Position numbers and translations under genes: made by a program. Source: Candidatus Sigynarchaeum calidifontis (GTDB lineage: Archaea; Asgardarchaeota; Lokiarchaeia; Sigyniarchaeales; Sigyniarchaeaceae). From it: a stretch of DNA of 56,437 nt. Below are positions 1 to 53,028 of the stretch, in pieces. Position 1 is the stretch's first letter; every line of letters begins with the position of its first letter. A model generated the notes under the pieces. It did not search any database, was not told the origin of the DNA, and saw nothing but the letters and a program-made list of their open reading frames with translations. Location: NCBI GenBank assembly GCA_030587475.2, contig JAUQYZ020000229.1, forward strand, positions 1 to 56,437, given 5' to 3'.

Positions 1-730
1 TTATCGGGCTCTCGAGGCCGATGCTGTCCTTGTTCTCGATCGTGAACAAGAGCACGATGTCGGGGGCCTTGAACTCGACGGGCTTGTCGATGGCCTTGCT
101 GATGGCCGCCCCGACGAACCTGTTAAAGTGCGACTTGATGAGCTCCCCCCACTTCAGCTCGTTCTCCACGCGCATTTCCTCTTCCTTTTCCATCACGCTG
201 GTCGAAAACCGCGAGCCAACGAGAAAGGTGTGGAACTCGACCTTGCCGGCTTGCTCGCGTGCCATTCGAACCGCTGTTTCCTGCACCTGGCGGGAGAACA
301 CGCCCCCGCACAGCTCGCAACCATCCCACTCCCACGGCACCTTCGGGTCAAGCTCGGGAAATGTGGATCCATCGCCTTTCTCGTTTCCGGTAATGGCCCC
401 GGTGGTTCCGGTAACGGTACGGGCGCTCGTGCTGGCGCCGCCCGGGACCATCGCGTTCAGCTGCTTGGCGAGCCTTGCACCGAGGGGATGGCACGCCGCT
501 GCTTGGCCGATCACGAAGTTCTTGTTCGACGCGTACCCCTCATCTTGCTCCGCGTCTACTTTTTCCTTGAGAATGCCGTGAGCATCGAGCAGCGCTGCCT
601 CGCGCAATATCATTCCCCTAAAGCCATTCTCGATCCCCGTGCCGAGGGCAGCGAACTGCCGGCCAAGACAGTGGTCGCAGAGCGCGTGGCGAGCGAGCAG
701 CTGCTTCACGACATCCGTCAGTCCTGCCAA
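1..730 (-). CDS. pus10: tRNA pseudouridine(54/55) synthase Pus10, N-terminal part (runs off window start)
   Basis: Not in the ORF track because it is open at the edge. Manual translation from TTG at 730 gives LCDHCLGRQFAALGTGIENGFRG, a second CELC pair, EFHTFLVG and WGELIKSHFNRFVG...KPVEFKAPDIV, typical of the Pus10 Zn/THUMP N-terminus. GGGAGG lies upstream. Confidence 0.88.
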   Translation of the reverse strand, partial: MAGLTDVVKQLLARHALCDHCLGRQFAALGTGIENGFRGMILREAALLDAHGILKEKVDAEQDEGYASNKNFVIGQAAACHPLGARLAKQLNAMVPGGASTSARTVTGTTGAITGNEKGDGSTFPELDPKVPWEWDGCELCGGVFSRQVQETAVRMAREQAGKVEFHTFLVGSRFSTSVMEKEEEMRVENELKWGELIKSHFNRFVGAAISKAIDKPVEFKAPDIVLLFTIENKDSIGLESPI

Positions 731-744
731 CCTTGTCGCCTCCC

Positions 745-1143
745 TCAATCGTCCACCGTCATCGACTTGACCGTTGCTTGCCGGCCACCCGCGATCTCCG
801 TTTCCGTGCCGCCGCAAGCCGAGCACGTGAAGGCCCCGGGGTTCATCATCGCCAGCGACGCGCCCACGCCATCGGATGATTCCTTCTTGAATGAGATCTC
901 AGTGATTGCACCACACGCGCCACACCGGATCTTGCCGGGCATACTCGTGACCACGAGCTCCGAGCTAGCAAGTTCTTGGTGGTTTATTTTTATGATATCA
1001 TAGCTGTGACGCAAGAATTCCGGGATGATCATGGTGAACTCGCCGACCTCCACGAGCACCGAGCGCACTTTTTTCACGCCGTTTTTCTTCACGTTTTGCA
1101 GGACGACGTCGACGATATTGCTGGCGAAGGAGAACTCGTGCGT
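745..1143 (-). CDS. hypA: Hydrogenase maturation nickel metallochaperone HypA (apparent ACG start)
   Basis: Motifs (T)HEFSFASNIV...VEVGEFT...IPEFL...CGACG...CSACG...IAGGRQ. The conserved MHE N-terminus is encoded ACG-CAC-GAG at 1143; the track start at 1092 is internal. Confidence 0.88.
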   Translation of the reverse strand, partial: THEFSFASNIVDVVLQNVKKNGVKKVRSVLVEVGEFTMIIPEFLRHSYDIIKINHQELASSELVVTSMPGKIRCGACGAITEISFKKESSDGVGASLAMMNPGAFTCSACGGTETEIAGGRQATVKSMTVDD

Positions 1144-1150
1144 GTCGTGG

Positions 1151-1654
1151 TCACCCGGTGTCGTCGTTATCGAGGAGGCCGTCGTACTTCGACAGCAAGC
1201 CGTCCTTGTCGCGAAAATGCGCGCCCCTCCAAAAGAGTTGCGCGCATTTCGGGCATTCCCAGAAGCTGTCGATGGTCCGGTAGGTGCCTTCCTTCACCCG
1301 GCCTCGTACCCGATCCTTTGGAATGGGCAACAGAATTTCATTGCACTTGGAGCAGCGGCTATTGGCCTGTTCGAAGGAAAACTCGATGCCAAGCTTGGTT
1401 TTCAAGCAAGCGATTTGTTCGCGCAGTGTCTTTCCCTGGACGAGAACCACGCGAGCCGGGTCGCGCAGCGAGAACTGGTCGTCCTTCGTGAGCACGAGCC
1501 GCCCGGTTTCGAGGGCAAGCTTGTAGATGTCGCCGTCGGGCAGCGCGTCCCGGTCCTTCTCCAGCTCCCCCACGTAGAGCGTGTCGTAACCGAAGAAACG
1601 CAAGTTGCGGGCCAGGTTTCCCAGCATGGCATCCACGATGAAACGAGGTGTCAT
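1151..1654 (-). CDS. Mut7-C RNase domain protein (PIN-like plus zinc ribbon, DUF82)
   Basis: FIVDAMLGNLARNLRFFGYDT, LTKD, SRCSKCN, FWECPKCAQLFWRGAH. ATG at 1654. Confidence 0.88.
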   Translation of the reverse strand: MTPRFIVDAMLGNLARNLRFFGYDTLYVGELEKDRDALPDGDIYKLALETGRLVLTKDDQFSLRDPARVVLVQGKTLREQIACLKTKLGIEFSFEQANSRCSKCNEILLPIPKDRVRGRVKEGTYRTIDSFWECPKCAQLFWRGAHFRDKDGLLSKYDGLLDNDDTG

Positions 1655-4528: not shown

Positions 4529-5314
4529 CTAGTTCCCGGTGATGAGCTGGTTCTTTTCGGCGAGAAAGTCGATGTATCGCTTGATGCTCTCGACCTCGTC
4601 CTTGAACGCGCGGACTTTCATGACGAGCGGCGAGTTCCGGCGATAGGTGAGGTCGATCGGCGTGTCCTTCACGGCGTCCTCGATGAAGATCTTCTTGCGG
4701 CCCTTGAGCGAGTGCATCAAGAATTCCTTGATGTACGGGTCGATCTTGGCCAGTTGATCGACGATGGCCATCTGGATATCGAACTCGGTTGCTTTCTCGA
4801 GGGCCGCGATGAGCGCCTTCGATGCTTTCACGTCTTTGAGCAAAAAGCTTCCGATGAGCTCGACCGCCTTGAGTTTTACCTCTTTATCCGTCTCTTTATC
4901 GAGCCGGTCGATGATCGTGTCGATGATGTTCGCCGATTCGAATTCCACGATCGATTCGAGGACCATCTTGCGGATCTTTGGATCGCCATCCTCGAGCAAC
5001 TTCAAGATCGCGCCCAGGATTTCGGGGTTGCTGGTGTATTTCGCCAGCGTCTTGAGGGCGATCGTGCGAACGCTCTCCTCCGGATCCTTGATCTTGGGAA
5101 TAAGCAGCGTGATCTTGTCCGATGTCTTGTACTTGCCGATGGCCCAGATCGCCGCGCTGCGCACCTCGGCGTCCGCGTCATCGAGCAAGCCGACCAGCGC
5201 GTCGAGAGCACGGATGTTCTTTGAATACCCAATCCCCTTGATGGCTTCGATCTTGTCCTTCGCGCTGGTGTCGGCGGATTTGAGGGTGGAGATCAAGTTA
5301 TCGATAGAACTCAA
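4529..5314 (-). CDS. HEAT-repeat protein
   Basis: Repeated L.D.D..VR..A...L units (DADAEVRSAAIWAIG, DPEESVRTIALKTL, DGDPKIRKMVLESI, ETDKEVKLKAVELI). TTG start. Confidence 0.85.
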   Translation of the reverse strand: MSSIDNLISTLKSADTSAKDKIEAIKGIGYSKNIRALDALVGLLDDADAEVRSAAIWAIGKYKTSDKITLLIPKIKDPEESVRTIALKTLAKYTSNPEILGAILKLLEDGDPKIRKMVLESIVEFESANIIDTIIDRLDKETDKEVKLKAVELIGSFLLKDVKASKALIAALEKATEFDIQMAIVDQLAKIDPYIKEFLMHSLKGRKKIFIEDAVKDTPIDLTYRRNSPLVMKVRAFKDEVESIKRYIDFLAEKNQLITGN

Positions 5315-5470
5315 ACCGAATTCCTCTGGTAGGGTCGATGTTGAATTCGACTTATGCCTTTCAAACTACGGGTCGAATTAAAAGTGTCGAAAGTCACTCG
5401 TGGAACTCGTCGACGAGGCGTGATGCCCCATGGTCGAATCGAGTGGGGGTTCGAAAAGCGAAAAAAGTGA

Positions 5471-7804
5471 TTAGAAAGGAGTCTCACCGAACATGAAGAT
5501 GAAAAATGCCATGACGTGGTTCGCGCTCGCGTCTTGCACCTCGGCGACCACGTAACACCCGTCGCCAACGACATCGGCGGGTTCCACGTCCACGATATAA
5601 GGAACGACCGGGTTGGGGATGACCGGGCCTGCCGGGGGCCCCAGAGGCTCGTTCGTGGTCGCGTTGTACTTGTGCACGTAGATCACCCAATCAGGCATGA
5701 ATGCACCGAGATCCGTGCCCGCGAAGGTTATCACGTTCATGTAGATCATGAACGGCCCCGGCACGTGCAGCGTGTTCGACACCCTGCATCGGTAACCATC
5801 GAAAATCGTGCCCGTCAGGCCATCGGTCGTGCACGTCGCGTTATACGGGTATACAGGGATGCCCGGCGCCCGGGAGTAATCCGGCTCGTTGGGCGGGTTG
5901 GTCGGCTTGTTGAACATCTGGTATGCGGGCTTGAACTGGACGGTCACGTTGCAAGCCGCGGTGTCGTTTAAGTTCATCTTCACGAGGCGCACGTTGTCTA
6001 CCTTCGAGGGGTCGATCGGGATAGGTGCTTGCGTGGAGCCCGGCGTGTTTTTCACGGTATAATGGTAGATCTCGGTGCTGCCGTCCTTGCGTTCGATGAT
6101 CACCGTCACCGAAACGGCCTGGCCTGGCTGCGGCGTTATCCAGATCTCCAGCGGCGCGGACCCCAGCATGGCGAAATCCTCGACGGCGGCACCATAAGGC
6201 GCGACGCTTTCGGTTGACGTGTAACCGGCATCGCCGACAGGCATCGACTCGTCGGGTTTCACCGCCGGGACGCCGTTGTTGTCCTCCGCGGACCCGTCCG
6301 CCCGCCACTGGTAGTACCGGCGGAGCAATTCGGCAAAAGACAGGCCGGTCGCGGCCTCGGCGGCTTCGCGGAAGCCCACCGACCCGCTCATCGAGTTCGT
6401 CAAGTTCTTCAAGACACCCTCGCCGAACGTCTCGTTGATGAACTTGAGCAGCAAGAAGCCATTGCAATAGTCACCATGGGTGAACCCGAACCTGGTCGTC
6501 CCGTTGACCGTGCCATTGCCGAACGTCGGCATGTTCAGGCTCTTGCCGTGCTTGTCCCATGACTGGCCTGGGATGCCCCTCGAATTCACGATCTGGCCGA
6601 TGAGCGTGTTGACTTGCTGCACGGTCAGGTTGTAGTTCCGCGCCGCGCTAACCGTGCCCCAATACGTCGCCTCGCCCTCGTAAAAGGCTTCATTTCCCTT
6701 CTTGATGATGCCTTGCTCGTACTGGTAGGCATGCACGACCTCGTGCTCGACGTTGTACTTCAAATCGACCTTACCCCGGAACTGGCGGGCCGCATCCCCG
6801 GACCGGATCTCGTTTCCCACCCAAATGTAGATCGACCCGTTCGGATACGTGGCGCCGAAGGATGAATTGGCACCCTCGTGGACGCCGATGTGGATGTCGA
6901 GCACGTTGTCATTGCCCAACTTCGGGCCGCCAGCACGCCCGAATCGCGCGAGGTACCTTATCGTTGCCTCGACCATCTCCTTTATCTCGCCCGGGGAGAT
7001 GCCAGGCGTCGGATGCGCGTTCGTGACCGCGATGGGAACGGGGTTGGGGGACTGCGCCCCCACGTACGCGGGGTAATGATCGAGGAACCCGTTGTAGATC
7101 ACCTCGGCGACGTCGGGCACGCTCCCGTTTCCCGCCGGGTCGTCCACGACGTTGTGCAAGTTGTTGAAGGAGGCGGGCGTGGGGGTGTCGTTGTACCAGT
7201 TGCATGACCTGTCTTGGTCCCAGCCCCAGATCGAGATCGATTCGGAATCATTGCTGGTCGAAGCCCCGCCATCCGAGATGTCCCAGCCGGCAAGCCCGAG
7301 AGGCGCCGCTAACCCGCCATAGCAGACATAATCGATGAGATATTCCGTCCCGTTGTCAAAATAGAGGAGCACGTGCCCGGACTGCTCATCCAACAGCCTC
7401 GCCGGGACATCGAGATGCACGACGGCGCTCAACGTGGTGGCATCGATTGACGTGGATCCAGCATCGCCGCGGATGCACGCGTGCCAGAACTCGCCGAACC
7501 CGGCGATCTCGGGGATCGAGGTCTTCGGAACGATGACGTTCCCGTCGCGATCCCTTGTCTCGATGTACCAGTTCTTCAAGGAATTCGTTGAAAAGTTCGT
7601 GAAAGAATACACCTCGATGAACTGGTCGTTCAACAATATGCCGCTGTCAGACTTGTACCTGATTTCGGAAATCATGACCTTAAATGGCTTTCCAGGCGTG
7701 CTGCCTGGAAGGAGGAGGAAACCAAAAACGATGGCCAATGATGCACCCGCGACCATCGCCGAAATCGCGATGGCCCTGGCGTGTTTTATTGTTCTCGGCG
7801 CCAT
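5471..7804 (-). CDS. Secreted or membrane-anchored protein: lamin-tail-like domain plus HEXXH zinc metallopeptidase
   Basis: N-terminal hydrophobic anchor; ISEIRY...DQFIEVY...IDYVCYG...PTPA resembles LTD; HEVVH followed by FYEGEATY is gluzincin-like. ATG 7804 preferred over 7939. Confidence 0.72.
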   Translation of the reverse strand: MAPRTIKHARAIAISAMVAGASLAIVFGFLLLPGSTPGKPFKVMISEIRYKSDSGILLNDQFIEVYSFTNFSTNSLKNWYIETRDRDGNVIVPKTSIPEIAGFGEFWHACIRGDAGSTSIDATTLSAVVHLDVPARLLDEQSGHVLLYFDNGTEYLIDYVCYGGLAAPLGLAGWDISDGGASTSNDSESISIWGWDQDRSCNWYNDTPTPASFNNLHNVVDDPAGNGSVPDVAEVIYNGFLDHYPAYVGAQSPNPVPIAVTNAHPTPGISPGEIKEMVEATIRYLARFGRAGGPKLGNDNVLDIHIGVHEGANSSFGATYPNGSIYIWVGNEIRSGDAARQFRGKVDLKYNVEHEVVHAYQYEQGIIKKGNEAFYEGEATYWGTVSAARNYNLTVQQVNTLIGQIVNSRGIPGQSWDKHGKSLNMPTFGNGTVNGTTRFGFTHGDYCNGFLLLKFINETFGEGVLKNLTNSMSGSVGFREAAEAATGLSFAELLRRYYQWRADGSAEDNNGVPAVKPDESMPVGDAGYTSTESVAPYGAAVEDFAMLGSAPLEIWITPQPGQAVSVTVIIERKDGSTEIYHYTVKNTPGSTQAPIPIDPSKVDNVRLVKMNLNDTAACNVTVQFKPAYQMFNKPTNPPNEPDYSRAPGIPVYPYNATCTTDGLTGTIFDGYRCRVSNTLHVPGPFMIYMNVITFAGTDLGAFMPDWVIYVHKYNATTNEPLGPPAGPVIPNPVVPYIVDVEPADVVGDGCYVVAEVQDASANHVMAFFIFMFGETPF

Positions 7805-46615: not shown

Positions 46616-46861
46616 GATGGTTCGACCTCGCGTTGTAAACGGTTCCCCGACTCCCCGACAAGATTTGTCGCAACACGAAAGTAGAACGGGAACCTTGGTA
46701 CGATTTGAAAAATTGTATAAGTACCCATTAAAATAGTTTGTCATGTTGAGGAAAACCCCCAATTCCAGACGAGAATCCCGCATCACCGGCGCATGGTCGT
46801 GGATTAAAACGTGCTGCTTTACGCGATAGCTAACCACAGTTCATACCTGTTCAGCCGTGCC

Positions 46862-47806
46862 ATGGGCGCGAGCATCGGGCTTGTAGAGCCAGAACCGGAG
46901 AACATCATCCGCCGGCTCTCCGCGTGCTCGCGGGAGGCGGCGCGCGTCTTGACAAGCGAGTATCCGGCGCTGGGGAAGGTACTTGTACCGGCCGTGCAGT
47001 ACGGGAACGAGTCGGACATGTACTTCGACGACCCCGGGCTGGTCGACGTGCTGGTCTCGGAGCGGGACGCCCCCGTGCCCGTGCACGCGTTCATCCACGA
47101 GACCTCGGACAAGCAGCCGCTCGTCAAGGGATTTCGTGACAAGATGGCACGGTTATTACCGCTGTGCCGCCGCCTCGGGACGCGCAACATCACGGTGCAC
47201 TTGCCACTCGACCGGGCCGACACGACCATGGCCTTGCTCGAAGAACTTTGCACCCCGGTATTTTTGGATCTCGTGCGAAAATCGCGCGTGTCGATCGACC
47301 TGGAGAATAACTGGCACGCGTCGTGGTTTGGATTCGCTGAAAATTTGATCAATTTCTACGCGACACTTGACAAGCGGTTAGATGCCATCGGGGAAGGAGG
47401 CATGAAGGAATGGTTTGGCATGACCTTCGATAGCGGCCATTTTTTCGCCCAATATCGCATCGCGGGGCGGCCGCTGCGGCCGGATCTCGACCGGCTCTTC
47501 TCGGTTCTCGGCGACCGCATCCGGACGGTGCACCTCCACGGGAACGACGGCACCAGCGACCAGCACAGGTGTTTCGAGCCCCCGCCGGCGGCTCCAGCAC
47601 AAGCAAGCACCTTCGTTTCGAACCAGCAAGCCTTGCTCGCTTGCTTGCCGTTGCTCGACCTGGCGGGCCGGGCGCGAGCGGGCGAGTGGGACATCGTGAT
47701 CGTGTCCGAGATCGCCGTGCCGTTCACGATGGAGACATATCTCGCCCACTCTCGTCTTCTTTTCGACGCCATCACGGGTCGTCCTTTAAAACCTTGCATT
47801 GCATGA
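46862..47806 (+). CDS. Xylose isomerase-like / AP endonuclease 2 TIM-barrel protein
   Basis: VHA, TVH, LENN, FDSGH, VHLHGNDG..DQH, and E metal-ligand pattern. Confidence 0.8.
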   Translation: MGASIGLVEPEPENIIRRLSACSREAARVLTSEYPALGKVLVPAVQYGNESDMYFDDPGLVDVLVSERDAPVPVHAFIHETSDKQPLVKGFRDKMARLLPLCRRLGTRNITVHLPLDRADTTMALLEELCTPVFLDLVRKSRVSIDLENNWHASWFGFAENLINFYATLDKRLDAIGEGGMKEWFGMTFDSGHFFAQYRIAGRPLRPDLDRLFSVLGDRIRTVHLHGNDGTSDQHRCFEPPPAAPAQASTFVSNQQALLACLPLLDLAGRARAGEWDIVIVSEIAVPFTMETYLAHSRLLFDAITGRPLKPCIA

Positions 47807-47889
47807 ACTCGAAAAGGCGCATCACGATCGCGGGACGTTTAAAAACATTGATCGAGTAGAGGATCGCTGGGCTTCGAGGTGCTAATTCC

Positions 47890-48729
47890 ATGAACCGCTT
47901 TTCTGTCGTGTCCTTGCATTTCACGCGCGAGTGCAACTTGAACTGTTCTTTCTGTTACCGCCCTAAAGAATTGACGGGTAAAGAAAAATCATTGCCATTT
48001 TTCATCGATTGCGTGAAATACATGAAGGAACTCGCGCCGCAAGTCGCCCTCGGCGGGGGCGAACCGTTCATGTTTCCCGGGTTCATGAACACGCTGGGAA
48101 ACGAATGCAGTAAGCACGGCATGACCCTCAACGTGACGACCAACGGCACCTTGATACGCGGCATGGACAACGTGCACCTCCACCAGGCCGTCAAGGACGT
48201 GGCCATGGTGTCGGTCAGCCTCGACCACGGGAAGTGGCACGATCTCCGGGAGTACGCGTGCGTCGTCCGTCGCCTCAAGTCGGCGAAGCCCGGCTTGCTG
48301 GTCGGCACGAATTTATTACTCGAGCCGGGCTATTTCGAGGAACATGGGAAACCGCTCTACTTCACCATCGAGTGGTGCATCAAGAAAGCCCGCGTGGACA
48401 GGGTGTTCTTGTTGTACCCCAAGAACGTGCCGCTTGGTGTCGATATCGTGCAATACAAGGACTTTTTCTCGGCGATCTCGACGATGTTCCCGGGCAGCAT
48501 CTTCGTCGACGACTTGACCCGCCAGATCCTCGAGCACGGCTACCCGCCATGGAACGTGCCTTGCCACCACGGCAGGGACATCGTGTCGATCGACGAGGAA
48601 GGGGGCGTGCACGGGTGCTCGTTCGACACCGCCCCGGTGCTCAAGATGGCGGTTCCATCCGATCTGCTCGGGGTGAAGGACATCCCGTTCGAGAGCCGGC
48701 TGTCCTGCCCTTATTTGAAGCGTGACTGA
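47890..48729 (+). CDS. Radical SAM enzyme with Twitch/SPASM-like C-terminal cysteines
   Basis: CNLNCSFC, GGGEP, TTNG, VSLD, then PCHHG...IDEEGGVHGCSF...CPY. Confidence 0.92.
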   Translation: MNRFSVVSLHFTRECNLNCSFCYRPKELTGKEKSLPFFIDCVKYMKELAPQVALGGGEPFMFPGFMNTLGNECSKHGMTLNVTTNGTLIRGMDNVHLHQAVKDVAMVSVSLDHGKWHDLREYACVVRRLKSAKPGLLVGTNLLLEPGYFEEHGKPLYFTIEWCIKKARVDRVFLLYPKNVPLGVDIVQYKDFFSAISTMFPGSIFVDDLTRQILEHGYPPWNVPCHHGRDIVSIDEEGGVHGCSFDTAPVLKMAVPSDLLGVKDIPFESRLSCPYLKRD

Positions 48730-48731
48730 CC

Positions 48732-49028
48732 ATGGACGACGAGCACATCCAATTCGATTTCAAGGGAGCCCTGGCACGTGCCGGGTATCGAGAACAACGG
48801 TTCGATTGCTGCGACACGTGCAGGTTTCATGCAAATTGGTACGAGGGGGACATGTATTGCAAGTTGCATGTCGATTTCATCGGCTCGAAAACCAAGCACG
48901 TGCATTTCGTTTTCGTGAACTGGAACGGGATTTGCAAGCATTATCGCCCGGTGAAAGATAAATACCGGCTAAAAGGCATCGCATCGAAATCGCTGAATGA
49001 CATCCGGGATAAGGTGAGATGGGAATGA
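48732..49028 (+). CDS. Small Cys/His-rich protein (possible Zn or Fe-S binding)
   Basis: CCDTCRFH...CKLH...ICKHY. 2 nt gap upstream and ATGA overlap downstream. Confidence 0.72.
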   Translation: MDDEHIQFDFKGALARAGYREQRFDCCDTCRFHANWYEGDMYCKLHVDFIGSKTKHVHFVFVNWNGICKHYRPVKDKYRLKGIASKSLNDIRDKVRWE

Positions 49029-50002
49029 TCGACTTGAATCCGAATTGCTCGGAATGCATCTTCGCGCTGAAAGGATTGTCGCGCGACGAGGCCATCGCCG
49101 CGCTGAACGCCATCGGGATATTCGAGGTGACGATCCCGGTCACGTCCAATTACGACGGCAAGACGTACGATCACGTTTATCTTGCCGACAAGGATAACGA
49201 GCTGCTGCCAAATTTCGACGAGCACAATGGCAACTTGGATCTCGACGAATGGGCAGTTGGCGTGTGTGTCCACGGCGACATCAATCTCGGCGACTATGCT
49301 TATCCGACCATGCTCAAGATCCAGAAGGCGTTCCCGCAAGGATCGTGGGAGGACATCAACGGGAGCGAGGTGGAGGAGTTCTTGCAATGGTACATGCACG
49401 ACATGCCGCCTGTCAAGACGAAGATGGACGAGAAGACCAAGAGAATTCGTGAAAAGTACGTGAACCCGCAGATTAAACAAAAAACCGAGTTAAATCCGAA
49501 TTGCTCCGAGATCGTGTTCAAGCTCCCGGGAATCACGAGGGAACAAGCCCTCGCCAAGCTCCGTGACATCGGCATCCTCGAAGTCACGATACCGCTAAAA
49601 TTATTTTCCAGGGACAATGACGACGACATTTCTTGGACAATCCTCGCGGACCGGGATAACCCGCTCGTGCCGGATCTCGACTCGGAATACGGGGGCGCCC
49701 AGCTTGACATCGAAACGTGGCAAAACGGGGAAACCGTGATTCACGGCGGCATTAACCTCGAGTATTCCGCGTTCCCGACCATGAAAAAGATCCGGGACGC
49801 GTTCCCGGCGAGCAAGTGGGAGGAAGCCATGGGAGGCGACACGGCGGGAGAATTCGAGGAATGGCTGAACAACGGGATGAGATTCACCGCGAGGCAAAAG
49901 AAAGCGGTAAAATTCGGGCGAAAGAAACCGGGCAAGGACACAAGAAAAGCGAGGAAGGAGATCATCGACCCGGCATTCGCCGCGCTGAACCCGGTGGATT
50001 GA
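49025..50002 (+). CDS. Protein of two tandem ~130 aa repeats, each beginning LNPNCSE
   Basis: The repeats align throughout (IG..EVTIP, LAD.DN...P..D, HG.INL, A.PTM.KI..AFP...WE, EF..W). Basic C-terminal tail. Confidence 0.82.
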   Translation: MIDLNPNCSECIFALKGLSRDEAIAALNAIGIFEVTIPVTSNYDGKTYDHVYLADKDNELLPNFDEHNGNLDLDEWAVGVCVHGDINLGDYAYPTMLKIQKAFPQGSWEDINGSEVEEFLQWYMHDMPPVKTKMDEKTKRIREKYVNPQIKQKTELNPNCSEIVFKLPGITREQALAKLRDIGILEVTIPLKLFSRDNDDDISWTILADRDNPLVPDLDSEYGGAQLDIETWQNGETVIHGGINLEYSAFPTMKKIRDAFPASKWEEAMGGDTAGEFEEWLNNGMRFTARQKKAVKFGRKKPGKDTRKARKEIIDPAFAALNPVD

Positions 50003-50107
50003 AGCGGTTATCCGGGCAATAGGCCAAGCGTCTAACCGCGCAGAGCCAGAAAGGATATTAAATAGAATTGGTACTGGTGACCGTGAATTGACATTCCACC
50101 TCCTCCG

Positions 50108-50716
50108 GTGCACGAAACCATGATAGTGGTATACCATGCCGGCCACGAGATCGAGCTTCCACCAGATAGCATGATCATCATCAAGCGTGCCTCGGAACGC
50201 GATTATGAATCACTTGCGAACGAGGACTTGAAAATAGAATTCGACGGAGAGTGCTTGTACATTCATTCCCCCGCATCCAAACTGCATGAAAACGTCGTTT
50301 TCAATTTAATGGCCATTTTCAAGCGTCATGTTTCTCAAAGCCCGTTTTTGGGCGATATCATCGGATCCAAGTTCGCATTGAAGTTACCAAATGGAAAAAG
50401 ACCGGAGCCGGACGTGGTTGTCGTCCCCCGAGGTGCCGTGGCGGATAATGATTCAGTCTATGAGGGCGTCCCGCCTCTCGTTGTCGAAGTACTCTCGACG
50501 AGCACGAAAGACCACGACCTCAATATCAAACACACGTGGTATGAAGAGAGCCACGTGCCCGAGATATGGTATGTCGATCTCGAAGGGCACAAGGTCACCG
50601 TGCTTCGTCTATCGAAGGATGGAACTTACACGTCAACGGATTATGCGAAAGACGTCATCATTTGCGAGGCGTTGGGACGCCTGGAGATACCACTTGCCGA
50701 TATATTCACAACATGA
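50108..50716 (+). CDS. Uma2 (DUF820) family PD-(D/E)xK endonuclease-like protein
   Basis: EFDG...SPA...H, EPDV, PPLVVEVLS.ST...D...K...Y...VPEIW.VD. Confidence 0.9.
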   Translation: MHETMIVVYHAGHEIELPPDSMIIIKRASERDYESLANEDLKIEFDGECLYIHSPASKLHENVVFNLMAIFKRHVSQSPFLGDIIGSKFALKLPNGKRPEPDVVVVPRGAVADNDSVYEGVPPLVVEVLSTSTKDHDLNIKHTWYEESHVPEIWYVDLEGHKVTVLRLSKDGTYTSTDYAKDVIICEALGRLEIPLADIFTT

Positions 50717-50848: not shown

Positions 50849-52171
50849 ATGATCCGACAAGTGCACGTGCAGCGTCTACTGGCTATCGCGTTCGTTGCCA
50901 TGGTTTTTTCAGGGAACATTGCCTTGATCTTCATCAATTATGACACGATGCAAGCAGCCAGGGACGAGCGCCTCCTCTCGGAAGCGCGCAAGCGCATCTT
51001 GGCGATCCGCCGCGGCACGATCGAGCTGGATTTCGGTGCCGGGAATGCGAGCAAATCCGTGACCATCACGCAGCGATCGCACGCGTTCCGGTTCGGTTGC
51101 AACGCCTATCAATACGGTTTATTCAACACTAGCACGCTCAACCAAAAATACAACGACTTGTTCTCGGCCATGTTCAACTACGCGACGGTTCCTTTTTACT
51201 GGACGACCTACGAGTGGAACCGGGGCGTGTTCCCGTACGAGGCCCGGCTGCATGACATGACTGCATGGCTTCGTAGCTTCAACGCGACGGCCAAGGGCCA
51301 CCCGATCATCTGGCAAGCCGAGGAAATCGTCCCGCCGTGGATGAAAGCGCTCGACCAAGCGGCGCAACAAGATGCCGCCCTCGACCACATCGATCGCGTC
51401 CTGTCTCAATTCCCCGAGATATACACGTGGGACCTCGTGAACGAGATGACGCACGTGCCGAACACGTGGCTCGGCTCGACACCCGACGAGACGTGGAAAG
51501 CCGCGGTCGGGCACGCCCGCGCGATTCGGAACGATTGCGAGTTCATCGCCAACGAGTACTCCATCGGTGACGGGCAAAGCCCGGATCCATTTCATGATTT
51601 CGTCTCGAAGGTCGTGCTGGCTGGCGCCGCACCCGACGCGCTCGGGTTCCAGTTCCACACGATCGACCAGTGGTATCCGCTCGACAAGCTCGTTTCCACG
51701 CTCGACCGCTTCGGCACGTTCAAGATCCCGATCCACATCACGGAGTTCTTGCCAGGGAGCAAGGGAATGTACAAGGACGGGACCCGCGGCGGCGCCATGA
51801 CCGAGGCCACGCAAGCGGAATGGGCAGCCCGTGCCTACACGATGCTCTTTTCTCACCCCGCCGTCGACGCGATCACGTGGTGGGACTTCAGCGACGCGGC
51901 CTGGTCGGCGTGGATGGCGGAGAAGGGAGCGTACATGATGGCACCCGACGGCCGCGTCTTGCCCGTGTATGGCCGGCTGTTCGACCTCATCCACGTGCAA
52001 TGGAACTCGTCGTGCACGATCTTGCTGGACGGGGCGGGAAAGTGCTCGTTTACCGGGTACTACGGAAATTACACGTTCGTCATCGAGGGCGGTTCTGCCG
52101 GCGCGTTCCAGATCATCGACGATCGGCCCGCCAACGCTCGTCCCTGGACCATCGGCGACGTTCATCCTTGA
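50849..52171 (+). CDS. GH10-family glycoside hydrolase (endo-1,4-beta-xylanase-like), N-terminally anchored
   Basis: H.F.FG, FNYAT..FYW..YE, KGHPIIW, WDLVNE, ANEY, GFQFH, IHITE, SHPAVDAITWW. Confidence 0.9.
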   Translation: MIRQVHVQRLLAIAFVAMVFSGNIALIFINYDTMQAARDERLLSEARKRILAIRRGTIELDFGAGNASKSVTITQRSHAFRFGCNAYQYGLFNTSTLNQKYNDLFSAMFNYATVPFYWTTYEWNRGVFPYEARLHDMTAWLRSFNATAKGHPIIWQAEEIVPPWMKALDQAAQQDAALDHIDRVLSQFPEIYTWDLVNEMTHVPNTWLGSTPDETWKAAVGHARAIRNDCEFIANEYSIGDGQSPDPFHDFVSKVVLAGAAPDALGFQFHTIDQWYPLDKLVSTLDRFGTFKIPIHITEFLPGSKGMYKDGTRGGAMTEATQAEWAARAYTMLFSHPAVDAITWWDFSDAAWSAWMAEKGAYMMAPDGRVLPVYGRLFDLIHVQWNSSCTILLDGAGKCSFTGYYGNYTFVIEGGSAGAFQIIDDRPANARPWTIGDVHP

Positions 52172-52357: not shown

Positions 52358-52675
52358 TCAACCGATTTCGATGCCATCGATCATTGCCTGGCTTATCATC
52401 CCTAATTGACCGCATTTATTCTCGAATTCCTTCACCGTGTAGCAGATGGGCTCGAGTTCTAGGGGATAACCATCCCAAAAATCGAGAACCAAGGCAATTC
52501 TTTCTGCAAATCTCATCCCGGCGAAATAATCGGAGATAACGATGATATCGTAATCGCTGTTTCGGAAATTGTCACCTCTAGCCCGGCTTCCGAATAGAAT
52601 GATGCGATCGATAGGGAGCTTTTCCTTTATGCGCTTTGCAAATTCTTGAATTCTTCCATCCGGTTCTTTACCCAT
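52358..52675 (-). CDS. MNT minimal nucleotidyltransferase (antitoxin-type)
   Basis: ILFGSRARGD...SDYDIIVIS. Confidence 0.9.
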   Translation of the reverse strand: MGKEPDGRIQEFAKRIKEKLPIDRIILFGSRARGDNFRNSDYDIIVISDYFAGMRFAERIALVLDFWDGYPLELEPICYTVKEFENKCGQLGMISQAMIDGIEIG

Positions 52676-53028
52676 GATATAACCCCTCTCGCAGTAGTTA
52701 AATAACGTTCTCCGATTTTCTCGTCATAATTCTCGGCTGGAATACCGTTTGCAATATCGGGATAGCGCGAGATCATGTATTCGGGATTCAACTCTCTTAT
52801 ACCGGTCATTAATTCTTGCGGGATGCCCAATTCATTCGCCAAGTAGATTAACGAATGACTCTTGGCGCTTTCATTCTTGATCAGGAGGTAAAGCCCTTTC
52901 ATGGCCTTTTCCGATGCTTGATGAGAATAAAACGCGACGCCGTCGAAGTATCCGTGCTTTTGGAGGACCTCGGCCTTCTTGTAATCCGCTTCTGCCTGCG
53001 AGATCCAATCGGTTACTTCTCGACGCAT
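52627..53028 (-). CDS. HEPN domain protein (HEPN-MNT pair)
   Basis: W..QA..D, F.SHQASEKAMK, SHSL..L, Y..SRYPD. Overlaps the MNT gene. Confidence 0.9.
   Translation of the reverse strand: MRREVTDWISQAEADYKKAEVLQKHGYFDGVAFYSHQASEKAMKGLYLLIKNESAKSHSLIYLANELGIPQELMTGIRELNPEYMISRYPDIANGIPAENYDEKIGERYLTTARGVISWVKNRMEEFKNLQSA

Follow-up and report, generated by a model that had tools for sequence, protein, structure and literature searches.

Radical S-adenosylmethionine (SAM) enzymes that modify a whole protein are known in a handful of cases, namely anSME, QhpD, the MCR enzymes and CrpC (2026). CrpC, an archaeal enzyme from Methanococcus voltae, crosslinks the whole protein CrpA, and a role in binding the substrate Cys was proposed for its three-Cys cluster AuxI (PMC13692751). 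In Streptococcus orisratti, NxxcB links a Cys to the β-carbon of Asn in an NxxC motif, tolerating Gln as the acceptor and refusing Ser in place of Cys, and its auxiliary Fe-S cluster was proposed to activate the Cys (PMC9389541). Here, we describe a 2.2-kb cassette in a 56,437-nucleotide stretch of DNA from the Asgard archaeon Candidatus Sigynarchaeum calidifontis (contig JAUQYZ020000229.1; "the window" denotes this whole stretch), in which a radical SAM enzyme (rSAM) is encoded together with a protein that carries the sequence LNPNCSE, hereafter the tag, at the start of each of its two repeats. Genes for tagged proteins adjoin this clade of enzymes across archaeal phyla and in different gene orders, the tag is nearly invariant, and the enzyme belongs to the radical SAM class. 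Judging from the sequences, we put at about 55% the probability that the rSAM modifies the tag, in which case the two would form a two-component protein-modification module on an accessory cassette.

Linkage of the enzyme and the tag

Positions 47890-50002 of the window are filled by three co-oriented, closely packed genes on the forward strand. The rSAM gene (47890..48729, with its TGA stop at 48727-48729) encodes 279 residues of a Twitch-like enzyme without the recognition element (RRE) that binds the precursors of peptides that are made by the ribosome and modified post-translationally (RiPPs), as judged from PF04055, its homologues and an AlphaFold2 (AF2) model. After 2 nt follows a Cys-rich open reading frame (ORF) of 98 residues with five Cys, a lineage-specific orphan (48732..49028), whose stop overlaps the start of the tagged-protein gene in the ATGA at 49025-49028. 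The original prediction had read these genes as a tight three-gene operon, and both the 2-nt gap and the overlap bear it out. The tagged partner protein (325 residues; 49025..50002) contains two copies of a family domain, each recognized by a hidden Markov model (HMM) at about 1e-39.

A scan of species-representative genomes with an alignment of the rSAM yielded 13 loci of the true clade and 67 loci of unrelated rSAM enzymes, and tagged ORFs at these loci were called by local HMMs and motif scans. The clade loci came from Thermoplasmatota, Methanosarcinales, Nanohaloarchaea and uncultured archaea, with one record (L014) labelled as an uncultured bacterium. A tagged ORF adjoins the clade rSAM in all 13 loci that could be assessed (the window, L003/L010, L009, L011-L016, L018, L020, L021 and L096), and none was found at the 67 control loci. 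Three loci were left out of this count, one with the rSAM 185 bp from the contig end (L017), one with a truncated rSAM of 169 residues (L019) and one in which the contig ends inside the rSAM (L022). The linked loci belong to Asgard archaea, Thermoplasmatota, Methanosarcinales and Nanohaloarchaea, and at least four archaeal phyla are represented. The co-occurrence of clade and tag, which had been proposed as a check, is strongly positive in both directions.

The linkage holds in either gene order, since the partner lies upstream of the rSAM in L010, L015, L016 and L018 and downstream of it at the other loci, with a spacing of mostly 0-5 nt or an overlap. In L010-L016, L018, L020 and L021, the partner ORFs start with M(x)LNPNCSE, MILNPSCSE, MIFYPNCSE or a similar sequence. 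The distant locus L009, from an AT-rich metagenome, repeats the order of the window (rSAM, small Cys protein, tagged protein), and in L005 an rSAM cut by the contig end is followed by a tagged protein and then by one with four repeats. Five genomes examined as a whole have one clade rSAM each, with all their tagged genes on the same contig and within about 12 kb. Within the window's phylum, the rSAM occurs in 4 of 400 genomes; a tagged gene is adjacent in three of them (G000, G123 and G164, the last with the variant tag LIPNCSI), and in the fourth the rSAM stands at a contig end. In the protein database, the closest matches to the rSAM and to the tagged protein fall five times on equal-sized contigs (18847, 242017, 10919, 13829 and 30275). 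Furthermore, the divergent clade of rSAM enzymes (L015-L018, about 175-200 bits) is accompanied by a partner group of its own, which fits a joint divergence of enzyme and partner.

The tag itself had been predicted to open both repeats of the third protein, with the first copy at residues 4-10 and with identity at the DNA level. This is what we find: tag 1 occupies residues 4-10 (49034..49054, forward strand), and tag 2, which falls in the linker that leads into repeat 2, residues 156-162 (49490..49510, forward strand). The two-repeat structure likewise stands, as the two halves of the 325-residue protein align to each other with 35% identity and an E-value of 8e-28; the predicted repeat length of ~130 residues does not, the repeats measuring ~150-170 residues with a period of 152. 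In repeat 2, the Cys of the tag is the only Cys. The pattern AAYCCNAAYTGYWSNGAR, which codes for N-P-N-C-S-E, has two occurrences in the window (49037-49054 and 49493-49510), the first 14 bases of which are identical, compared with none in 100 shuffles, and the looser pattern MAN-CCN-AAY-TGY-WSN-GAR finds only those two sites in the whole 5.0-Mb genome, its reversed control finding none.

A word-based search of 5.8 billion proteins retrieved 15 clusters of the tagged protein, and a profile search of 1.84 billion representatives retrieved 119, 80 of them at E <1e-10. Most members have 150-250 residues, and the profile alignment begins within their first few residues, typical N-termini being M-x-LNPNCSE or MxIExG-[IFVM]-[NQ]-PNCSE. 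The tag, φ-[N/Q]-P-N-C-S-E with φ a hydrophobic residue, is present in 114 of 122 clusters, with 127 occurrences, and the eight untagged clusters are N-truncated records that begin past the position of the tag. Counted relative to the Cys, the occurrences have a hydrophobic residue at -4, N (84), Q (32) or another residue (11) at -3, P at -2 (121), N at -1 (123), S at +1 (all 127) and E at +2 (121). Ser was not found in place of the tag Cys in any of the 127 occurrences in 114 clusters; the suggested search for exchange between Cys and Ser thus returned a motif that is nearly invariant throughout the family and a Cys that is never Ser. In 102 of 114 proteins, the tag Cys is found no further than residue 30, most tags standing 2-10 residues from the start, while the remaining proteins have a leader-like extension of ~45 residues, an N-terminal zinc ribbon or multiple repeats. 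One multi-repeat protein has 983 residues and six domain matches, four of them with a clear tag, and an 831-residue ORF in L005 has four domain matches. Altogether, the tag is kept throughout proteins with two, four and six repeats.

Beyond the tag, the family is diverse. An alignment of 51 sequences has no invariant residues other than P, C, S and E of the tag. Most members also carry the motifs D.DNP..PD, HQHCQxQLFPT..KI and DGGS..Y.EW, and the Asgard-type subfamily of the window has lost HQHCQ and retained the tag. When the tag is removed, BLAST leaves the partner groups unconnected to one another, and the family model covers the Thermoplasmatota partners over only its first ~60 positions and the L010 partner over only ~20; some tagged partners thus have little in common except the tag. 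From these alignments, the tag appears to be common to structurally diverse archaeal proteins, Asgard ones included, and to be usually N-terminal. Neither the tagged protein nor the Cys-rich ORF has a match in Pfam, NCBIfam, PHROGs or PADLOC, and the same four libraries are empty for six canonical members of the tagged family. A weak match to DpdC in the profile-library scans was dismissed at an E-value of 0.013.

The AF2 model of repeat 1 has a mean predicted local distance difference test score (pLDDT) of 83 and a predicted template modelling score (pTM) of 0.80, with residues 1-8, which reach into the tag, below a pLDDT of 50. The tag thus probably sits in a flexible N-terminal tail preceding a confidently modelled fold, and in the partner proteins it precedes the first β-strand. 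For the tagged domain, Foldseek found nothing at E <0.001, a wide VIA-align search gave a best Z of 5.8 (for a CinA sub-domain and generic ferredoxin-like sandwiches) and the ESM Atlas gave no usable lead (0.84). The modelled fold is a generic α/β sandwich with no informative relative. The protein of the window ends in ...AALNPVD, and by sequence and self-alignment this is a C-terminal partial tag, LNP (49985..49993, forward strand). Indeed, tagged proteins of the Asgard subfamily end in part of a next tag (LNPVD in the window, LNPN in P0004), and the C-termini of P0013 and P0011 are PNP-containing tails. Such partial tags could be remnants of the truncation of a tandem array, or LNPN could be functionally part of the preceding unit.

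The rSAM scores 45.2 bits against PF04055 (cut-off 29.5) and has ~110 full-length homologue clusters at 35-77% identity. Its radical SAM [4Fe-4S] cluster motif, C15-x3-C19-x2-C22 (47932..47955, forward strand), is invariant in 67 homologues, and the GGGEP SAM-binding motif is conserved in the clade. The C-terminal part holds a three-Cys motif, C225-x12-G238-x4-C243 ... C273 (48562..48708, forward strand), in which C225, C243 and C273 are invariant in the same 67 homologues and H226, G238 and G242 are conserved in at least 90%. The hairpin of SPASM and Twitch domains has the signature CX9-15GX4C, which the segment from C225 to C243 fits, marking a putative auxiliary cluster; the auxiliary Twitch-type motif of the original prediction is thereby supported, in the form of three invariant C-terminal Cys. 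The SPASM domain proper (PF13186) has a seven-Cys motif ending in CX2CX5CX3C and binds two auxiliary clusters. Here, PF13186 gave no match at E <0.1 and there are just the three conserved C-terminal Cys; as a second Cys cluster motif is missing, the domain is Twitch-like with three Cys ligands. In the AF2 model (pLDDT 96.6), β1 of the core starts as early as residue 6 and is followed by the cluster motif at residue 15, which leaves no space for an N-terminal RRE.

Matches of the rSAM in NCBIfam, PADLOC and the PDB sequences cover only its first ~115 residues and are far under the family cut-offs. On the viperin side, these are NF038283 (54.8 bits against a cut-off of 180, E 7.6e-15, residues 6-113), PADLOC pVip (1.2e-16) and PDB 6b4c; the maturases PapB (NF047865) and StsB (NF045574) reach 35.8 against 340 and 29.2 against 625, and NrdG2 (TIGR02495) reaches 40.2 against 131.15. 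A viperin-like antiviral enzyme was rejected on these cut-offs together with the auxiliary-cluster Cys, and membership in the ranthipeptide and sactipeptide maturase families PapB and StsB on their curated cut-offs. Structurally, the model is closest in VIA-align to SuiB (Z 21.8), SkfB (20.2), PqqE (19.9), BlsE (19.6) and viperins (~19), followed by MoaA (18.2), CteB (18.1), anSME (17.8) and PFL-AE (14). The alignments with SuiB, SkfB and PqqE span residues 1-276, Twitch hairpin included, at 16-17% identity; the model therefore places the enzyme among the Twitch/SPASM maturases.

Proposed modification of the tag and alternative roles

If the rSAM modifies the tag, its reaction could be pictured as follows. 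The enzyme would hold one SAM-cleaving [4Fe-4S] cluster and a second cluster bound by three Cys; in a Twitch-type hairpin, three Cys ligands would leave one iron free. It would bind φ-[N/Q]-P-N-C-S-E-φ-φ directly, without a leader-binding RRE, in the way anSME binds its motif. The tag Cys would ligate the iron left free in the auxiliary cluster, the 5'-deoxyadenosyl radical would take a hydrogen atom from a neighboring residue of the tag, and a thioether would close within the tag. Candidate acceptors are N/Q at -3, giving an NxxC-type ranthionine, N at -1 and E at +2. Such an intra-tag thioether is suggested by analogy and is, on balance, a doubtful guess at the product. The broader proposal would be a previously unrecognized tag-directed modification, in which a minimal, RRE-less Twitch rSAM reads the 6-8 residues around [N/Q]PNCSE and makes of the Cys either a crosslink or a cofactor derived from the protein, the pair moving as a small cassette, possibly in conflict or defence; its chances seem to us slightly short of even.

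Several points count against a modification of the tag. The tag, as the most conserved motif of the family, could just as well form an active or metal site of the family's own proteins; many members also carry HQHCQ and DGGS..Y.EW. Position -3 is variable, as the counts above show, and this weakens the reading as NxxC. BlsE, the viperins and MoaA, whose substrates are nucleotides or sugars, lie within 2-4 Z of the top structural match, so that the fold alone is not diagnostic of a peptide enzyme. Finally, the contig-level context covers only about 20 loci.

The viperin-side matches of the N-terminal half, and the Z of 18-19.6 for BlsE, viperin and MoaA, would also suit an rSAM that converts a small molecule, such as a nucleotide, with the tagged protein as a functional partner that binds, carries or converts the product via the tag Cys. 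The further conserved motifs of the domain (D.DNP..PD, HQHCQ, FPT..KI and DGGS..Y.EW) have the look of an enzyme or binding protein. Yet the viperin match stays far below its cut-off and ends at residue 113, viperins have no auxiliary cluster while three extra Cys are invariant here, and the window's subfamily has dropped HQHCQ and kept the tag. One enzyme is paired with one to six tagged domains or paralogues and with partners that have little but the tag in common, which fits substrates better than a stoichiometric partner; we thus regard a small-molecule role as unlikely. The position of the tag, precisely at repeat boundaries, together with the partial tags at protein ends, would suit a site of self-processing or cleavage at Asn-Cys, the residue pair found at the C-terminal splice junction of inteins. 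Alternatively, HQHCQ of many members could pair with the tag Cys and Glu in an intrinsic metal site, the rSAM then serving another step such as cofactor insertion. However, the system has neither a protease nor an intein-like fold, the domain being a generic sandwich, cleavage at most tags would trim only a few residues, a Cys or His partner motif is lacking in repeat 2 of the window protein, and the strict linkage to the rSAM would be left unexplained, which makes processing or a metal site improbable. Less probable still is an activase that, in the manner of the PFL-activating enzyme, puts a stable radical or redox-active group on the partner, with the tag as docking or activation site. Several homologues are labelled "organic radical activating enzyme" by JGI, NrdG2 and PFL-AE are among the weak matches, and the enzyme is small and free of an RRE. 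But PFL-AE reaches a Z of 14 compared with 20-22 for Twitch/SPASM maturases, NrdG2 stays under its cut-off, known activases lack a Twitch cluster, and they target a Gly in a C-terminal loop, whereas the tag has no Gly; membership among the glycyl-radical activases was rejected on these grounds.

The Cys-rich ORF could itself be the genuine precursor, of a RiPP-like kind, or an accessory without which the rSAM would not work: it is wedged between both genes by the 2-nt gap and the ATGA overlap, it has five Cys, and small Cys or zinc-ribbon modules recur near the system in non-homologous forms. Its GC content by codon position (0.49/0.34/0.65) is coding-like. Among 5.8 billion proteins, however, it has no homologue except itself; it has no similarity to the 141-residue small Cys ORF at the same position in L009, it reaches only E 0.03 against the zinc ribbon of P0010, and the ESM Atlas returned only unnamed, mostly viral clusters (0.91). 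It is absent at every other locus examined, and the rSAM and tagged genes abut without it in L005, all Thermoplasmatota loci, L014, L016 and L018. A precursor or essential accessory is therefore hardly credible, and the accessory factor of the original prediction is not supported; the ORF is at most a local, lineage-specific addition outside the conserved core. The recurring modules are either fused to the tagged protein, as is the CxxC...CxxC at the N-terminus of P0008, P0010 and P0163, or encoded by neighbor genes, as is the zinc ribbon upstream in Thermoplasmatota loci.

The accessory cassette and its surroundings

In a genome of the same genus (G281), the TIM-barrel and Uma2 genes that flank the cassette are contiguous, with 78-83% DNA identity in the flanks. 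There, ~17 bp replace positions 47868-50046 of the window, which therefore mark a precise 2.2-kb indel between the two genomes. The pair is rare, at no more than 1% of the genomes of a phylum, being found in the four of 400 genomes mentioned above and in 3 of 401 sampled Thermoplasmatota. Such scattered, island-like occurrence points to an accessory role, perhaps one in genetic conflict. The alignment of the Asgard-type domain had no match in the viral contig scan or the genome contig scan. The picture drawn from these comparisons is that of an accessory module that is horizontally exchanged.

An archaeal TATA-like element, TTTAAAAACATT (also written TTTAAAAA), can be read from the sequence ~40 nt upstream of the rSAM start (47839..47850, forward strand) and is a possible promoter of the cassette; its TTTAAA recurs in the sister genome, at the empty site. 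Shine-Dalgarno-like sites stand 7 nt 5' of the starts of the first gene (GAGGTG) and the third gene (GGTGA). Another possible start of the third gene, ATG at 49019, is less likely.

Directly 3' of the cassette, at 50108-50716, lies a gene for a putative restriction endonuclease of the Uma2 family (PF05685, 3.6e-29), with a second match to PDC-S03, a candidate defence family of PADLOC (9.8e-25); the same gene is present in the sister genome, where the cassette is absent. The flanking genes for a xylose-isomerase-like TIM-barrel protein (46811-47806, PF01261) and a GH10 glycoside hydrolase (50849-52171, PF00331) are ordinary and unrelated to the cassette. At 52358-53028, on the reverse strand, overlapping ORFs of 105 and 133 residues are nucleotidyltransferase-like (GSRARGD) and HEPN-like by motif only; such a pair would be of the MNT/HEPN toxin-antitoxin type.

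Other loci of the clade have neighbors of their own. In Thermoplasmatota (L011-L013 and L020-L022), two conserved small genes stand 5' of the rSAM, one for a membrane protein of ~85 residues and one for a zinc-ribbon protein of ~71 residues (CPxC...C..C), neither with a Pfam match. The rSAM of L009 (4357-6366) is split at the conserved ALGGGEP by an insertion of ~390 residues that carries intein splicing and LAGLIDADG homing-endonuclease domains, and a DNA N6/N4 methylase is encoded 2.5 kb upstream of it. In L005, a related metagenome contig, an α-2-macroglobulin/TED thioester protein (4576-7416, reverse strand) is encoded ~1 kb from the tagged-protein genes. In L097 (G139:C411), from the fourth genome of the window's phylum, an ATPase with the P-loop GIGKST stands 5' of the rSAM (3-1244, reverse strand) and resembles OLD/AAA_15 by eye.

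Comparison with described systems

A relationship to the Avs2-associated Avap1/Avap2 pair (PMC11564622) was rejected, since DUF6375 (PF19902) is absent from the window protein and from the six canonical members and no STAND gene lies beside the cassette. The original prediction had pointed to "(T/P)NSSS" tags in proteins encoded beside rSAM genes; if such tags exist at all, they belong to a different system. In the literature, we found no paper with the motif and none describing such a pair or archaeal Twitch enzymes that act on proteins. Neither the tagged family nor, at the family level, the rSAM clade has a model in Pfam, NCBIfam, PHROGs or PADLOC.

By the spacing of donor and acceptor, NxxcA/NxxcB is the nearest likeness, as 116 of the 127 tags read [N/Q]-x-x-C and the Cys is strict. 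However, NxxcA is a short, leader-containing streptococcal RiPP peptide, whereas the tag is carried by folded archaeal proteins of 150-400 residues without leader or RRE, and NxxcB and the rSAM of the window probably share no more than the rSAM core. With CrpC/CrpA, as with QhpD/QhpC, the proposed system would have in common that an rSAM puts thioether crosslinks on a whole protein encoded alongside it. CrpC differs in that its SPASM domain is complete, with two auxiliary clusters, and that it has an RRE, and CrpA is a Cys-rich repeat protein; the enzyme of the window, at 279 residues, lacks an RRE and has just one Twitch motif of three Cys, and each tag offers a single Cys.

In its mode of recognition, the rSAM would resemble anSME, which also does without an RRE and directly reads, in a full-length protein, a short motif with one Cys that it turns into a functional residue; the structural match (Z 17.8) spans the whole chain. 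Yet anSME has ~370 residues and two auxiliary clusters (7-8 Cys), and its motif is C/S-x-P-x-R, in which Ser can replace Cys. We rejected membership of the rSAM in the anSME family, given the tag [N/Q]PNCSE, only three auxiliary Cys, no match to the NCBIfam anSME model and a partner without a sulfatase or other Pfam domain. The best structural matches, SuiB, SkfB and PqqE, share the Twitch hairpin with the rSAM; they differ in acting on leader peptides with an RRE, either fused or, as PqqD, separate, and their chemistries differ from one another (Lys-Trp, Cys-to-α-carbon and Glu-Tyr links). The prokaryotic viperins (pVip) give the best profile matches, over the first 113 residues, but have no auxiliary cluster and act on NTP substrates, and the C-terminal half is unrelated in sequence.

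In summary, an rSAM maturase with a protein substrate is a known kind of system, while this enzyme clade, the putative substrate family and a tag rule that dispenses with an RRE are not known. If our proposal holds true, it would add to the few known cases of whole-protein modification an enzyme clade of ~110 clusters, a substrate family of ~120 clusters and a simple recognition rule that needs neither leader nor RRE. The system is small, with an enzyme of 279 residues and a tag of seven, and the tag might be useful in protein engineering should its product be a defined crosslink or cofactor. The cassette stands in an Asgard archaeon as what appears to be a recent insertion, and thus provides a clean natural plus/minus comparison.

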